Shown one piece after another: positions 2,189 to 44,501 of a stretch of DNA of 64,000 nt. A program made the translations under genes and the position numbers. The first letter of the stretch is position 1, and each line of letters opens with the position of its first letter. The stretch comes from Promethearchaeota archaeon. GTDB lineage: Archaea > Asgardarchaeota > Lokiarchaeia > Sigyniarchaeales > SOKP01. The DNA is taken from the NCBI GenBank assembly GCA_048937405.1, contig JBHLNF010000007.1, positions 32,001 to 96,000 on the forward strand, given 5' to 3'. The notes beneath the pieces are model-generated. The model ran no database searches. It saw only the letters and a list, made by a program, of their open reading frames with translations, and was not told where the DNA came from.

Positions 2189-4219
2189 TTAAGATTCAAC
2201 TTTGGTAATTTTTACTACAGTTGAATAATATGAACCGGAAAAACCTAATTCTTCTGGTATATTTGGAGTAAAATGATTTACGTTCATATTTTCTTTTAAT
2301 TTTGATGATAAACCAGAATATATTAAGGCTGTTCCATTTTTTAATATAGATGATTCTGCTAAAATATACTCACCTCTACCATATTCATTAGAAACAAGTA
2401 CTTTTTCACCTTTTATTATACCTAAAGATTCAATATCCTCAGGTGTCAAAAATATCTTACTAAATTCTTCAAGATATTTAAGATTAATATGGCCTAATTG
2501 AGAATGTAAAAAATGAAAATGGGAAGGTGAAATAAGTAGAAATTCATGATTGTCTTTAAAACTTTTAAGCTTTAATTTATTCTCTCCAAATTTAAAATGA
2601 GGTCCCTTGGCTTGAATACGATTATTGGATGTAGGAAATTCTAAATTATCAAATGGAATAGAATCCATATCAAATAGCAAAAAATAACCTAATTTTTTAA
2701 TAGATTCTTGAATTTTAATAGGTAACATTTCTAAACACTTCTTAAAAATAATCTCTTGAGATTCATGAAATATTTTATCATTATAACCAACCTTTGAAGC
2801 TAAATGGCGAAAAAACTCGTAATTTGACATACAATCTTGATATGGGCATGGACCACCAACATTTATAGATAGACTTGGTATATAAAAAGGAGATACTATA
2901 TCACTTGTTTCTAAATCAAATTTTGCTGGAATTACAATATCTGCATACTCAGTTGTTTCATTTAAGAACATGTCTAAAACAATTATAAATAGATCTTTAT
3001 TCATCAATGCTTTTCTCAATAAATTTTGATTAGGAAGAGAGCTTGCTGGATTAAAATTATATACAATTAACATCTTATAGTTCCCAGATGATAAAGCAGA
3101 CCCTAAATTTATTATGGGAATCTCATTTAGTTTTTGTCTTTTTTCATAACCAGTTATGTAATTTTGAAGAGGTATAAGAAGAGGTTTTAGAAAATCGCTC
3201 TGAGAATAGATCAAGCCTGTACCTAGTTTTCCTATATTTCCAAGTAAAATTTGAATTAAAGCAATAGATTTCACGATCCTACCACCATAGAAATCTTTCT
3301 GAACGCCATAACCTATAGTAAATAAAGTATGGTGTTTGAATTTAGTTAAAAATTTAATAAAATTTTGAACCATTTGATAGTTTATTCCAATTAAACCTAA
3401 AAGTTCATTTTTCTCGATTTTTGTAATTTCTGTGAAAATAGATGAATATGAATCAACATACTTTTTCAAAAATATTTCGTCATAAATTTTATTAGTAATT
3501 AATTCATTTAGAACCATTTTTACTAAAAAATGTTCAGTACCTGGGAATATATGTATAAAAAGATCTGCTTTTTTTGCTATTACTGTATACCTTGAATCGA
3601 TAACTACTAACTTTGTCCCTCTTTTCAAAGCTTGCTTTACTAAAAAATAGGCATGATTGTTAGTTTCTGATAGATTACTCCCCCAAATAACTATTAATTT
3701 TGTAGATAAATTTACTAATTGAAACGGGTTTGTAGTTGAATAGGTACCAAATAATTCTGTTAATCCGGCACATCCCCCTTCATTACAGATTCCACCATTG
3801 GTGATTGTAGCTCCGATTCTTCTAAAAAATCGTAATGGACTATATTGTGAAATAAGACCACAATTTCCAGAATAAAAAGCCCCGAGAATGGAAGATGATT
3901 CACCTTTATTTATAATATTTGATATTTTATGGGATATAATTTTGAATACCTTATTCAGATTAATTTTCTCAAAATTATTTCCAGGTTTAACATCAGTCCT
4001 AATTAATGGATTTTTCAACCTTTCTTGATGATATAATAAAGCTTCCCTATTTATATATTTTGGACAAAAAAATCCATTTGTAAATGGATGTTTATTCATG
4101 GGATGGGAAGATAACAATTTATACTCTAATGCATCATCATCCCAAATTCCTTTAAACACACATGAACCATAACAGTCTTTTGTACAAGTACCTATTCTAA
4201 CTTTATTGGGATGTACCAT
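2189..4219 (-). CDS. Molybdopterin-dependent oxidoreductase (DMSO reductase superfamily)
   Basis: CTKDCYGSC...C [4Fe-4S] motif, IWGSNL, VVIDSR, DMFLNETTEYADIVIPA, C-terminal dinucleotide-binding domain. Confidence 0.88.
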   Translation of the reverse strand: MVHPNKVRIGTCTKDCYGSCVFKGIWDDDALEYKLLSSHPMNKHPFTNGFFCPKYINREALLYHQERLKNPLIRTDVKPGNNFEKINLNKVFKIISHKISNIINKGESSSILGAFYSGNCGLISQYSPLRFFRRIGATITNGGICNEGGCAGLTELFGTYSTTNPFQLVNLSTKLIVIWGSNLSETNNHAYFLVKQALKRGTKLVVIDSRYTVIAKKADLFIHIFPGTEHFLVKMVLNELITNKIYDEIFLKKYVDSYSSIFTEITKIEKNELLGLIGINYQMVQNFIKFLTKFKHHTLFTIGYGVQKDFYGGRIVKSIALIQILLGNIGKLGTGLIYSQSDFLKPLLIPLQNYITGYEKRQKLNEIPIINLGSALSSGNYKMLIVYNFNPASSLPNQNLLRKALMNKDLFIIVLDMFLNETTEYADIVIPAKFDLETSDIVSPFYIPSLSINVGGPCPYQDCMSNYEFFRHLASKVGYNDKIFHESQEIIFKKCLEMLPIKIQESIKKLGYFLLFDMDSIPFDNLEFPTSNNRIQAKGPHFKFGENKLKLKSFKDNHEFLLISPSHFHFLHSQLGHINLKYLEEFSKIFLTPEDIESLGIIKGEKVLVSNEYGRGEYILAESSILKNGTALIYSGLSSKLKENMNVNHFTPNIPEELGFSGSYYSTVVKITKVES

Positions 4220-38769: not shown

Positions 38770-39917
38770 GAAAGAAAATTTTAACCAAATCAGAAGGAGA
38801 AACTTATTTTATAAAAGTTAGGAGCATACCAAAAGGGTGTAAGTATTGTCTAGAAGGAAGTAAGGTTGTGTTATTTCTAAATGGTATTTGTCAAAAACCT
38901 AATCATTGTTCATGGTATTGCCCTATTTCGGAAGAAAGGAGAAATAAAAATCAAACTTATGCAAATGAAATTGAGATTACATCTAAAGAAGAACTAATTA
39001 AAGAAATAAATATGATAGACGCTCATGGAATGAGTATTACTGGAGGAGAACCACTTTCAGAGCTAAATTTTGGAAAAACCCTTGATTATATTAAATACAC
39101 TAAAAATAAAAAAGGAAAAAAATTTCATATTCACCTGTATACTAATGGTATTAATTTTAGTGAAGAAAAAGCTGAAAAACTATCTAGAGCAGGTTTGGAT
39201 GAGATAAGATTTCATCCTTCTAAAGAAAACTGGATTAATATAGAGAATGCTCTCAATAAACATATGACAGTGGGAGTAGAAGTACCCGTTATCCCTGAAA
39301 ATGAGAAGATAAAAGAACTCAAACAACTAATCCTTTATTTAAATACAATTGGAGTAGATTTTATTAATTTAAATGAATTTGAGTATTGTTTTCCTAATAG
39401 TCAATCATTAAAGGAACGAGGTTTTCAATTGAAAAAAGGATCAATTGCTTCAGTTGTCAATAGTCATGAAACTGGACTTAATTTAATAAGAACCATCGGT
39501 CCTAAAGTATCTTTTATGATGCATTTTTGCACTATAAAAGCTAAAGACTATTTTCAATTAAAAAACAGATATATTAGGAGAGCTAAAAATATCAGGCTAC
39601 CTTATGAAGTAATTAATGAAGAAGGGCTTATAATTTATGGACAAATAGAGGGAAGCAAAAAGGAATTAGATGAATTTTACAAAATTCTCTTGAATAAGCT
39701 AAAAATTCAAGATGAATTGATATCTTATAATAGGGTTAATATTAAACTTCCCTTTTATATCTCAATTAGGGATGAATTTTTATCACTTCTGGAAAATTAT
39801 GACTTAAAAGGTTACATTGTAGAGATTACACCTTTTAGACTTTTAAAATATCAACAAATAACTGAAAAGACCCCTATTAAATTATTTAAGGAAGAATATG
39901 GTTTTAATGGAAGTTAA
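38766..39917 (+). CDS. Radical SAM protein (archaeal)
   Basis: GCKYC, C..(PNH)CSWYCP, ITGGEP, HLYTNG, DEIRFHP. Confidence 0.88.
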   Translation: MRKKILTKSEGETYFIKVRSIPKGCKYCLEGSKVVLFLNGICQKPNHCSWYCPISEERRNKNQTYANEIEITSKEELIKEINMIDAHGMSITGGEPLSELNFGKTLDYIKYTKNKKGKKFHIHLYTNGINFSEEKAEKLSRAGLDEIRFHPSKENWINIENALNKHMTVGVEVPVIPENEKIKELKQLILYLNTIGVDFINLNEFEYCFPNSQSLKERGFQLKKGSIASVVNSHETGLNLIRTIGPKVSFMMHFCTIKAKDYFQLKNRYIRRAKNIRLPYEVINEEGLIIYGQIEGSKKELDEFYKILLNKLKIQDELISYNRVNIKLPFYISIRDEFLSLLENYDLKGYIVEITPFRLLKYQQITEKTPIKLFKEEYGFNGS

Positions 39918-40383
39918 AAAGGTTAATATCAAGGACTTAAACAAAATATTAAATCTCGAAAAGAGAATTTTTAAAGAGAATGCATTTTCCAAGAAATTAA
40001 TAGAGAAATTAATTTCAAATAATTTGGTTTTTTTAAAACTAGAAATTTCTAAAATAAATAAAAAATTAATCGGATTTATCATTGTTATAAAAGATCGAGA
40101 GGAGAGTGTTAGTATTATTAATTTTCTCATTGATCCCAAATATCAAAATAAGGGATATGGATCATATCTTCTACAGTATACAATAGAAAAGATAAAAAAT
40201 CTAAAGAACATTAAAAAAATAAGCTTAAATGTTCAATTGAGTAATTCCCCCGCTATTAATCTGTATGAAAAATTCAATTTCAAAAGAAATCCAACAATTT
40301 TAGAGAATTATTATCAATCCGGAGAAAGTGCTTATTTAATGGAACTTGAAATTAACTCTCGATTAACTAAAACTTATAAATAA
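39898..40383 (+). CDS. GNAT N-acetyltransferase (RimI/Ard1-like)
   Basis: PKYQNKGYGS, LNVQLSNSPAINLYEK, NYYQSGESAYLM. Confidence 0.9.
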   Translation: MVLMEVKKVNIKDLNKILNLEKRIFKENAFSKKLIEKLISNNLVFLKLEISKINKKLIGFIIVIKDREESVSIINFLIDPKYQNKGYGSYLLQYTIEKIKNLKNIKKISLNVQLSNSPAINLYEKFNFKRNPTILENYYQSGESAYLMELEINSRLTKTYK

Positions 40384-40456
40384 ATTCTATTACAATATGT
40401 GTAAATATCAATTTAATTATTTTTAATGAATTTAAAATAGAAGGTGTTTATTAAAA

Positions 40457-40609
40457 TTGGCTCCAGTAGATAAAGAACTTCAAGAAGAAATTAAAAAAGG
40501 TGTAACTCTTCAAAAAGTTGATGAAGCAGAATTAAAGAGACGTGAAGAAGAAAAAAAGAAACGTATGGAAGAATTAGAAAAAGTAAAAGCAGCTCTAGGT
40601 GAAAAATAA
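40457..40609 (+). CDS. 50-aa WH2-like peptide (not in ORF track)
   Basis: MAPVDKELQEEIKKGVTLQKVDEAELKRREEEKKKRMEELEKVKAALGEK; AGGTG SD at 40442-40446, TTG start, T-rich tract after the stop. Confidence 0.8.
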   Translation: MAPVDKELQEEIKKGVTLQKVDEAELKRREEEKKKRMEELEKVKAALGEK

Positions 40610-40761
40610 GAAAAATACTATCTTTAAATGAGTTAATTTTTATCTTTTTTATTTATTTTATTTTCGCAAATATTTTTACTAACGCAGATTAAATTAAGCT
40701 TTTCTTTAATTTTAGATTAGTTTTATTTAATGTATAAATTTTTTTGATAAAACATAAGGAT

Positions 40762-41835
40762 TTGAAAATTCTAAATCTCGACCTAAAACTTGGAGAAGTT
40801 ACAGTACAAACTGAAAATCTCTACGATTTATGGTCTCTGTATAATGTTATTGATAAAAATGATGAAGTAAGTGCTTTAACTCAGAGAAGAGTAGTTCTTA
40901 GAGAAGGTACAAAAGGTGAACGAAAACGAATGAGATTAAAATTAAAAGTCGAGGATGTCTCCTTTCATGAATTTTCAAATCGATTGAGAATTAAGGGTAA
41001 AATTCTTGAAGGTCCAGAGGATTTTGTCAGCTTTGGATCATACCATACTTTTAATATCGAAATACCCCAAAAAGTAACAATTATTAAGGAAAATTGGTTA
41101 AATCATGAAATTAATCGACTAAAAGAGACCTCAAGATTCAAATCTAATTTCATAATTTTAGTATGTGCAATTGAAACAGGATTAGCAACATTAGCACTTA
41201 TTACGAATTTTAGTCATAATCGAATTGCTACTATCAAAAAAAACATCCCTGGTAAAAGATATAAACAGACATACCGCAATAAGGCTTTAGAGGAATTTTT
41301 TAATGAAATAAAGAAAGTTATGATTGAAAATATTAAAAATTCAGAAATTGATTTAATTATCTTATGTGGACCAGGTAATACTAAAGATTATTTCAAGAAA
41401 TATTTTCAAAATATTCCTGATTTGGACTTTAGGGGAACAATAGAAACTTGTCATGCAAGTTCTGGGACAGAGAGTGCTATTAGAGAAACTTTAAAATCAA
41501 ATAAGTTAGAAAAGCTAAAAGACAAAATTAAAGTTCTGCAAGAAACTGAGAAAATTGAAAATATTATGGAACAATTTGCAAAGGATGCCGATCTCATAGT
41601 TATTGGAATTGAAGAAGTGTCTGAAGCCTCTGAAAAGGGTGCAATTAAACAATTAATGATAGCAGACATATTAATTAGAGGTTCTTCTAAAAAAGAAAAA
41701 TTAAAAATAGAAGAGATTATAAAAAATGTTGAAAATGGTGGGGGCGAAATTAATATAATGAGTACTGATAATATAACTGGGGAGCAATTAGTAAATCTAG
41801 GTTCAATAATAGGTATTTTACGATATAAACTTTAA
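40762..41835 (+). CDS. pelA: Pelota (Dom34) ribosome rescue factor
   Basis: ENLYDLWSL, RLRIKG, GSYHT, IPGKRY, CGPG, ILRY C-terminus. Confidence 0.95.
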   Translation: MKILNLDLKLGEVTVQTENLYDLWSLYNVIDKNDEVSALTQRRVVLREGTKGERKRMRLKLKVEDVSFHEFSNRLRIKGKILEGPEDFVSFGSYHTFNIEIPQKVTIIKENWLNHEINRLKETSRFKSNFIILVCAIETGLATLALITNFSHNRIATIKKNIPGKRYKQTYRNKALEEFFNEIKKVMIENIKNSEIDLIILCGPGNTKDYFKKYFQNIPDLDFRGTIETCHASSGTESAIRETLKSNKLEKLKDKIKVLQETEKIENIMEQFAKDADLIVIGIEEVSEASEKGAIKQLMIADILIRGSSKKEKLKIEEIIKNVENGGGEINIMSTDNITGEQLVNLGSIIGILRYKL

Positions 41836-43289: not shown

Positions 43290-43913
43290 ATGAGTCCGAT
43301 AATTACACATCAGGATGAATTAATCTTAGCGAAGACTGAGAAGGAATTAGTCTCCCAATTTAAAAAACTAGCTAAATTACAAAGCACTCTTATAGATTCC
43401 CAGAAAAAGTATGCAGAAAATCTAACTAGAGCAAATATTTTTAGAGATATGCTAAATCGAACTTTTAGAGATGTATTAAAACAAATGGAAACTCTTGCTC
43501 GAGAACATAGATCAAATATTAAGGATGAAGAGGTTAAGTTATATAGAGAAATAATCCAAAAAAATGACGATTTCATAAAAGATAATAATGCATACCTAAA
43601 TGCAATTAAAGATGTTACGATACAAAAAGAATACTTAGTTCAAAAAAAAATAGAATTTGCCGATGCCTTAGCTAGTGTTGCAAGTAGAAGATCAACTGTA
43701 ATTAGAAAAGCTTTGAATGTTGAAAAAGCGAAAAACAAATTAATCGATGGTGATAAATTAAACATTCTCGACCAACAACTTAATGATGTTCAAAGAGATT
43801 TTGATAGAGCACGAGATATATTATTAAAAAAAATATATCAGTTTGTTGAAGTAAGAGATGAGATTAATACCTTGTGGATCAAATTAAAAGATACTATAAC
43901 CGAATTAAGTTAG
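43290..43913 (+). CDS. All-helical BAR-domain-like protein
   Basis: 207 aa, three long amphipathic helices, basic tip VEKAKNKLIDGDKL followed by QQLNDVQRDFDRARDILLKKIYQF; GGAG SD. Confidence 0.6.
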   Translation: MSPIITHQDELILAKTEKELVSQFKKLAKLQSTLIDSQKKYAENLTRANIFRDMLNRTFRDVLKQMETLAREHRSNIKDEEVKLYREIIQKNDDFIKDNNAYLNAIKDVTIQKEYLVQKKIEFADALASVASRRSTVIRKALNVEKAKNKLIDGDKLNILDQQLNDVQRDFDRARDILLKKIYQFVEVRDEINTLWIKLKDTITELS

Positions 43914-44039: not shown

Positions 44040-44501
44040 ATGTGTGCCGAAGAATTTGCAAGCTTCTTAGATAGTACTCGAAAAGCGCCATTGGAAGAAA
44101 AACTGAATGCATTTGGCGATATCATTGAAAAAATTATGTCAATTGTTTTACGCATACCAGATTTAGTAGATCAGTCTCTTGGTTCTGTAAATGATAAAGT
44201 ATCAAATTTACAAAATCAAATAAATTCTTTAAATAGCCAAATAACATCTCTACAGTCTAGATCAGGGGTAACTCCAACGGCATCCGCTCCAGCGGCACGT
44301 ACCCCAGGCGGTCCTCCAGGAGGCCCTCCAGGATCTCCACCACCAACACCAGGTGGTCCACCAGGTGGTCCACCAGGCGGTTCAAGAGGACCTGGTGCTC
44401 CACCCGGTCCTAGTCGTCCTGCAAGTCCAGTTTCGCTTAGAGGTGCTATAATGGGAGAACTTAAACAGTTGTTTGCAAAGAGAAAGAGCCAATCTGGCTA
44501 A
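44040..44501 (+). CDS. Coiled-coil + Pro/Gly-rich linker + C-terminal amphipathic helix protein
   Basis: Heptads KVSNLQNQINSLNSQITSL; PGGPPGGPPGSPPP...; SLRGAIMGELKQLFAKRK. Confidence 0.85.
   Translation: MCAEEFASFLDSTRKAPLEEKLNAFGDIIEKIMSIVLRIPDLVDQSLGSVNDKVSNLQNQINSLNSQITSLQSRSGVTPTASAPAARTPGGPPGGPPGSPPPTPGGPPGGPPGGSRGPGAPPGPSRPASPVSLRGAIMGELKQLFAKRKSQSG
44347..44382 (+). repeat. 12-bp coding tandem repeat (CACCAGGTGGTC, about 3 copies) encoding PGGP units
   Basis: Read directly; locally GC-rich. Confidence 0.8.

Follow-up and report, generated by a model that had tools for sequence, protein, structure and literature searches.

A conserved 50-residue Asgard microprotein with a WH2-like first half, a candidate actin-monomer binder

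Introduction

Do Asgard archaea encode small, free-standing peptides of the WH2 kind that could bind actin monomers? The question is raised by a short open reading frame (ORF) at positions 40457-40609 of the window, i.e., the stretch of 64,000 nucleotides of archaeal DNA analysed here. In eukaryotes, actin monomers are most often handled through WH2 and thymosin modules, and WH2 proteins are known from bacterial pathogens as well. The WH2 motif is built from an amphipathic helix, L-x-x-x-I-x-x-G-x-x, usually with three hydrophobic residues, followed by L-K/R-K-V/T, and WH2 domains bind actin monomers or barbed ends. Asgard archaea, according to a 2025 preprint, "seem to rely mainly" on profilins and gelsolins for actin regulation. 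A reading of the window from its letters alone, hereafter the sequence-only reading, had proposed that the ORF encodes a WH2-like peptide and had stated that no characterised free WH2 peptide was known in Asgard archaea. The literature agrees on the latter point: a full-text search for WH2 or thymosin in Asgard or in archaea returned only the LKKT-like linker found inside two-domain gelsolins (PMC9433394, PMC7444086, bioRxiv 10.1101/2025.11.30.690169).

A microprotein gene with its own conserved signals

The gene and its flanking elements lie on the forward strand of the window as follows:

40399..40422, + strand: conserved AT-rich upstream block of 24 nt, promoter-like from its conservation in the genus, a candidate TATA/BRE element
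40442..40446, + strand: Shine-Dalgarno-like AGGTG, seen in the sequence 10 nt 5' of the start codon
40457..40609, + strand: 153-nt coding sequence of the microprotein (50 aa), from a TTG start to a TAA stop, its translation being the peptide of the sequence-only reading
40630..40664, + strand: T-rich block after the stop codon, archaeal terminator-like, conserved in the genus orthologues

The TTG start, the dedicated AGGTG and the downstream T-tract are all present as first described. The upstream block is kept in the eight species of the genus examined, being near-identical in seven of them, and GGTG is found at the same distance from the start in all eight orthologues examined. Synonymous sites of the ORF are near saturation among the species of the genus (n=8), whereas GGTG and both flanking blocks are conserved. 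The median pairwise dN/dS across the genus is 0.047, with dS values that range from 0.3 to above 2, i.e., into saturation. Because of this ratio, of the conserved ribosome-binding site and flanks, and of the 256 homologues described below, the ORF is a real gene under strong purifying selection; a chance ORF at 40457-40609 is ruled out by the dN/dS and the conservation. A simple bacterial hairpin scan found no terminator at the gene, and the missing hairpin would be expected for archaeal T-tract termination. The microprotein gene looks like a transcription unit of its own, given the conserved block upstream, the ribosome-binding site and the T-rich terminator.

The conservation that the sequence-only reading had put forward as a check is borne out well beyond the genus, adding to a dN/dS of about 0.05. 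Single-copy in its genome, the microprotein is found in 40 of 41 related genomes, and its identity varies between 72 and 98%. A word-indexed search over 5.8 billion proteins gave 256 homologues, 49-51 aa long and with 78-96% identity. All of these are unnamed or "hypothetical", and the named sources are Asgard metagenome-assembled genomes (MAGs) labelled Promethearchaeota, Loki-, Thor-, Hermod- or Hodarchaeota. The supposition that the gene had been missed through its size and TTG start holds only in part, as several NCBI and JGI MAG annotations do call it, under the name "hypothetical protein". Across 301 genomes sampled evenly from the phylum, the microprotein is present in 63 of the 68 genomes of the window's family and in all seven of its sister family, while the other families yield two weak matches among about 225 genomes; it was not found in most of the other actin-bearing Asgard families of this sample, which speaks against a role with actin. 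A search of related genomes adds two further families of the same order (matches between 1e-5 and 1e-9), and the microprotein family as a whole is restricted to one Asgard order. A homologue search for longer proteins returned nothing at E<=0.01, and the fused and tandem forms discussed below surfaced only through an exhaustive profile search and genome scans.

Likeness of the first half to WH2

The segment L-x3-I-x2-G-x2-L-x-K-V of the microprotein is aligned by HMMER to the WH2 domain of N-WASP without gaps, so that the exact fit to WH2 spacing claimed at the outset stands. The Pfam models, which had been proposed as a check, give a different answer: neither WH2 (PF02205) nor Thymosin (PF01290) matches the microprotein at E<=10, and a PF02205 scan of the whole genome gave no match at the locus. 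The gathering threshold of PF02205 is 23.1 bits; the microprotein scores below it, and only four of 33 family units reach the model weakly (best E 0.021). One unit of a tandem protein, P0123, matches WH2 at 13.3 bits (E 0.07), which is the best Pfam match of that protein. DUF3006, the commonest weak Pfam match, is found with more units than WH2 (nine of 33, best E 0.031) and was set aside as the identity of the family, its scores being far below its cut-off. Beyond such weak matches to WH2 and DUF3006, and those to Profilin given below, Pfam and NCBIfam hold no family for the microprotein, the tandem proteins or the profilin fusions.

Profiles were also built from the family itself. Profile A5, which covers the N-terminal half of 47 diverse family units, was searched against 177,635 distinct PDB sequences, and eight of its nine best matches are WH2 chains from structures with actin, all in the expected alignment register. 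They belong to N-WASP (3m3n_W at 6.7e-6, 2vcp_D at 3.5e-3, and 6uhc_H), Spire (3mn7_S at 2.4e-4, 3mn5_S and 3ue5_B), VopL (3m1f_V) and MIM (2d1k_C). Single WH2 chains individually score only 0.004-0.6 with A5. The sole non-WH2 protein among the nine is archaeal EF-1beta (aEF-1beta, 1gh8), and because it scores similarly to single WH2 chains, the pattern of a helix followed by G-x-x-L-x-K-[IV]-D is not unique to WH2. Thymosin chains are absent from the A5 matches, though the actin-thymosin fusion chain 4pl7 was in the searched set. With a profile of the 50-aa family only, N-WASP is reached at 2.2e-3 as a sum of weak repeats, level with a repeat of a de novo TIM barrel at 1.7e-3. The WH2-like character first proposed is thus upheld for the N-terminal half, clearly with a broad profile and marginally with the close family, but not by Pfam.

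Profile A1, built from the whole unit (33 units), was used in an exhaustive search of 1.84 billion representative proteins, which gave only 63 matches. Among those inspected, the matches from outside the family are P0176 (7e-5) and P0183 (4.5e-4), and both are Pfam WH2 proteins, at 64 and 35 bits against the cut-off of 23.1; each has two WH2 motifs, a stretch rich in proline and a Trp-containing acidic tail, and both trace to a bacterial contig. P0176 resembles a WASP-type nucleation-promoting effector of an intracellular bacterium. It is a clustered relative of one of two adjacent Pfam-WH2 proteins (683-1681 and 2427-3467) encoded on a bacterial metagenome contig, L069, with RecR, YebC and a class-I tRNA synthetase nearby. 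Against the genome's own 27,178 six-frame ORFs, the same profiles gave no other match (next-best E 0.77 and 0.3); despite the abundance of K, E, I and L in this genome, no ORF besides the microprotein is matched.

These searches bear directly on the main alternative, namely that the unit serves as a helical module for general partner binding or oligomerisation, composed of an ER/K-type single helix with a short amphipathic end, whose WH2 likeness would be convergent or coincidental and whose partner would not be actin. The sub-threshold Pfam WH2 scores and the marginal WH2 signal of the close-family profile favour such a general adaptor, as does the best PDB match of A1, the designed coiled coil SYNZIP5. 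However, the eight WH2 chains retrieved by A5 come from four unrelated proteins, and the library-wide search with A1 returned true WH2 proteins rather than coiled-coil noise. From these profile comparisons, the WH2 likeness of the first half is real at the level of the family, though the stretch is too short to prove homology or function by sequence alone.

Residue conservation and predicted structure

The coding sequence can be divided into three segments:

40469..40498, + strand: residues 5-14, short amphipathic WH2-like helix (L8, I12) ending in K-K-G; predicted by AlphaFold2 as helix 6-13, and aligning with LLxxIxxG of N-WASP, Spire and MIM
40508..40519, + strand: residues 18-21, LQKV, an LKKV/T-like motif in an extended segment, from conservation and from the lack of helix at 14-22 in the AlphaFold2 model
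40523..40603, + strand: residues 23-49, long charged amphipathic helix with the core R-E-E-E-K-K-K-R-M-E-E-L; predicted by AlphaFold2 with pLDDT 86-92, family-specific and outside WH2

Conservation of the L/I/G/LxKV positions, another check suggested by the sequence-only reading, is as a WH2-like element would have it. I12, G15, L18 and K20 are invariant in the 50-aa family, as are K35, R36 and K42; V21 is at least 90% conserved, position 8 is L or M, and most other positions are conserved at 90% or more. L18 is invariant in all 33 units of profile A1, LKKV is read literally in many relatives of the microprotein, and the tandem and fused units read L-[LIM]-x-E-I in the helix. Conservation within the first half falls on the L, I, L, K and V positions, which argues against a general adaptor. 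On the other side, the helix of the microprotein has only two hydrophobic residues (L8, I12), and across distant relatives it is the C-terminal core (R-E-E-E-K-K-K-R-M-E-E-L), lacking in WH2, that is better conserved than the N-terminal half, as a general adaptor would predict. The second half had been taken for a mere charged linker; it is instead a strongly conserved C-terminal helix that makes up half of the protein, with a conserved stripe formed by R29/E30, K33, R36/M37, L40, V43 and L47. A profile of this C-terminal half found nothing significant in the PDB, and no WH2 (best E 0.78).

AlphaFold2, run on an alignment of 42 sequences, predicts a short helix (6-13) and a long one (23-49) separated by a non-helical segment (14-22), with a mean pLDDT of 81 and a pTM of 0.37. 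Because of this low pTM, the microprotein is predicted to have secondary structure without a defined tertiary fold, and to be largely unfolded. Foldseek found no match for the model in the PDB at E<=10, which is expected for a model of 50 residues and two helices.

Tandem arrays and fusions of the unit

The whole unit of about 45 residues, beyond the motif alone, recurs in other proteins found by HMM searches, and the microprotein is the stand-alone single copy of this Asgard-specific module. The larger proteins include:

L010 1309-2748, - strand: P0122 (479 aa), 10 consecutive units, in a sister-family genome
L011 1194-2672, - strand: P0123 (492 aa), 10 consecutive units, in a sister-family genome
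L057 1889-2857, - strand: Ras-family GTPase (Pfam Ras 3e-28), unit, RHH, unit, in the window's genus
L058 1455-2510, + strand: LRR and unit, in another species of the window's genus
L066-L068 (L066 743-1165, + strand): RHH and unit, 119-141 aa, L066 being from a species of the window's genus
L062-L064: coiled coil and unit, by profile match

Tandem arrays of 2-10 units occur in the sister family. P0122 and P0123 have full-length E-values of 1e-16 and 1e-10, the last unit spanning HMM positions 6-47, and several of their units read L-L-x-E-I ... L-K-K-V-D. AlphaFold2 models of these proteins consist of long helices joined by loops of 8-10 residues at G-x-x-L-x-K-V-D, with low confidence (pLDDT 62, pTM 0.25), so that no solenoid is predicted.

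Profilin is found fused to 1-4 C-terminal units followed by a small C-terminal domain (P0164, P0182, P0185, L059, L060). Such fusions occur in several lineages, including the window's own family (L059, L060). The N-terminal domain of P0164 matches 5zza_P at 5.2e-8 and 7pbh_A, entitled "Profilin", at 1.2e-4; that of P0182 matches 5yed_A at 4.7e-4 and also 5zzb. We take 5zza_P, 5yed, 5zzb and 7pbh to be Asgard profilins (Akil and Robinson 2018 and later work). Profilin is also the best Pfam match of the fusions, at 19-22 bits, just under the cut-off of 25. In these proteins, the HMM match often begins only at G-x-x-L-x-K-P-D, the V being often replaced by P. Since profilin is a dedicated actin-monomer binder, these fusions provide context evidence for an actin link of the unit that is independent of the profile matches, and their repeated occurrence stands against a general adaptor.

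From the other architectures, the unit emerges as a binding module that is portable between proteins. Its fusion to Ras-like GTPase, LRR, RHH and coiled-coil domains as well as to profilin is what a general adaptor would produce, and makes a more general partner-binding role possible; attachment to Ras-GTPase, RHH and LRR domains suggests that the module's partner, whichever it is, feeds into signalling or transcription. Weighing these fusions together with the profile and conservation evidence, we consider a general adaptor with a partner other than actin to be a serious but less probable explanation, and lean, with modest confidence from sequence comparison, towards the microprotein being a WH2/thymosin-like G-actin binder. 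The description that fits the family best is that of a WH2/thymosin-type module in an archaeal variant, marked by a C-terminal helix specific to the family.

The tandem arrays also invite a nebulin-like reading, in which the unit would be an actin filament side-binder or ruler, with one unit per subunit, and filaments would be decorated or stabilised by the free microprotein. Consistent with such a ruler, the arrays contain as many as 10 units of about 45 residues at even spacing, with long helices and short loops predicted, and the charged stripe of the long helix could follow the filament surface. Nevertheless, Pfam and PDB profile comparisons revealed no sequence similarity to nebulin or to other side-binders, and the only significant similarity is to WH2, a monomer or barbed-end binder; filament decoration is accordingly an improbable role for the unit.

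Genomic neighbourhood, actin and profilins

The microprotein gene lies between two genes of recognisable type on the same strand:

39898-40383, + strand: RimI-like N-terminal acetyltransferase of the GNAT type (TIGR01575, 79.7 bits, just under the cut-off)
40744-41835, + strand: pelota (TIGR00111, 243 bits)

The order radical-SAM, RimI-like GNAT, microprotein, pelota is kept throughout the genus and in a sister-family genome (L012), and a further family of the order no longer shows it (L013, L014). It is quite improbable that the microprotein is a small translation- or ribosome-associated factor acting beside pelota (ribosome rescue) and the acetyltransferase: the kept gene order, the rimI-like and pelota types of the neighbours and the presence of aEF-1beta among the weak PDB matches would fit, but the gene has its own upstream block, ribosome-binding site and T-rich terminator, the synteny does not extend to L013 and L014, no translation protein is found among the fusion partners, and restriction to one order is unusual for core translation factors. 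After removal of Met, the microprotein would start with Ala, a typical substrate of N-acetylation. Thymosin beta-4 is also N-acetylated. A functional link between the RimI-like acetyltransferase and the microprotein is pure speculation. About 3.4 kb downstream, at 44040-44501 (+ strand), the window also contains a 153-aa ORF without a Pfam family, which has a coiled-coil start, a long G/P-rich tract (G-G-P-P-G repeats) and a C-terminal basic amphipathic helix. For this ORF and the helical 207-aa ORF at 43290-43913, family searches gave no support for a BAR domain or for a connection to actin.

The main actin of the genome (L016 1498-2640, - strand; G000:C25:219072-220214) is a canonical Asgard actin. 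The protein is 100% identical across at least 17 species of the genus, and the constraint on actin in this lineage is extreme. Its matches to eukaryotic actins are at about 1e-160, and among them are structures with WH2 domains or thymosin (4efh, 4pl7); it also contains the segments S-L-Y-A-S-G-R-T-T-G and W-I-G-G-S-I-L, which we take to form the WH2 docking cleft of actin. Linkage of the microprotein to this gene was considered and set aside as not meaningful because the two lie 147 kb apart on the same contig.

The genome encodes several profilin-domain proteins. At one locus (L051; G000:C7:553645-557067), the gene of a second actin (85% identity to the main one) precedes, on the same strand, that of a 412-aa protein whose N-terminal profilin-like domain is continued by a long C-terminal extension; the pair resembles an actin paralogue accompanied by an extended profilin. 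Another two proteins with a profilin domain, of 211 and 221 aa (L052 1507-2142 and L053 1501-2166, on contigs C29 and C13 of G000) have in common a C-terminal motif, L-K-x-E-I-x-x-F-L-x-W ... G-L-A-G-Y-I, after a low-complexity linker, and this motif may be another amphipathic add-on to profilin.

A model for the binding of actin monomers

Altogether, these findings lead to a model for the preferred reading, the WH2/thymosin-like G-actin binder. We infer each of its binding steps, and any effect on polymerisation, from what was observed directly, namely the gene, its profile likeness, its conservation and the architectures of its relatives. The first half of the module would act in a WH2-like manner, its N-terminal helix entering the barbed-face cleft of the actin monomer, while the extended G-V-T-L-Q-K-V-D segment (L18, K20, V21) would run along actin subdomain 1. 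The 27-residue charged helix, with its invariant K35, R36 and K42, could then extend over the monomer to the pointed face, as in thymosin beta-4, or hold a second partner. The free microprotein would bind actin monomers 1:1 and either buffer them or hand them over, whereas the tandem relatives would line up several monomers. In the profilin fusions, one actin monomer may be held by two contacts, profilin filling the cleft while the rest of the unit grips the same monomer, by analogy with the profilin-actin-thymosin exchange complex. The partial HMM match that begins at G-x-x-L-x-K-P-D in the fusions would fit such an occupancy of the cleft by profilin.

A broader scheme can be envisaged. In it, the unit would be a mobile Loki-type G-actin module, either a homologue of WH2/beta-thymosin or an independent invention, deployed on its own to buffer monomers, in tandem arrays for nucleating or templating filaments, as a profilin-coupled delivery device, and as a GTPase-, LRR- or RHH-attached sensor wired into signalling and transcription. 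We regard this extended scheme as unlikely in its entirety. In eukaryotes, MRTF couples the sensing of actin monomers to transcription.

Comparison with known actin-binding modules

With the WH2 domains of N-WASP, WAVE, Spire, MIM and VopL, the family shares the short amphipathic helix, the conserved Gly and the L-x-K-V motif at identical spacing, and the tandem arrangement known for WH2 is present in the family as well. It differs from them by an obligatory, highly conserved 27-residue C-terminal helix and by being archaeal and limited to one order; in the free microprotein, the N-terminal helix carries two hydrophobic residues, not three, and the score stays below the Pfam threshold. The beta-thymosins (thymosin beta-4, ciboulot) offer a likeness of architecture only, that of a free-standing chain of 40-50 residues in which an LKKT-type motif lies between an N-helix and a C-helix. 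The thymosin layout sequesters G-actin by capping both of its faces. Unlike these proteins, the microprotein has no match to Pfam Thymosin and a helix-to-motif spacing of the WASP type, not the thymosin type, and its C-helix starts two residues after the motif, is much longer and is highly charged.

Sister-family proteins of about 480-500 residues with 10 consecutive units (P0122, P0123) recall the tandem-WH2 nucleators Spire, Cordon-bleu and VopL/VopF. However, the archaeal units repeat about every 45 residues, the motifs are separated by a long helix rather than by short linkers, and the proteins have no dimerisation or KIND-type domain. Crystal structures (PMC9433394, PMC7444086) show an LKKT-like linker (LRRV, LKHV, LVDV) of the Asgard two-domain gelsolins (2DGel) on actin. 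This is a four-residue linker element inside gelsolin, without a helix of its own and unrelated in sequence to the microprotein family. In Leishmania and Trypanosoma, a WH2-like insertion in an internal loop of profilin contacts actin (PMC10907219). Profilin and a WH2-like element are thereby joined in one polypeptide, as in the Asgard profilin-unit fusions, but the element is an internal loop there, while the Asgard proteins carry 1-4 C-terminal modules and then a further small domain.

Significance

Even without actin binding, the family would remain a highly constrained and very widespread microprotein module of one Asgard order. If it does bind actin, it would constitute a third class of archaeal actin regulators, beside profilins and gelsolins. 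It would also provide a cheap reagent for work on Lokiactin, as a peptide of 50 residues can be synthesised. Finally, an origin before eukaryogenesis of monomer buffering, of nucleation of the tandem-WH2 type and of GTPase-coupled actin control would become testable.
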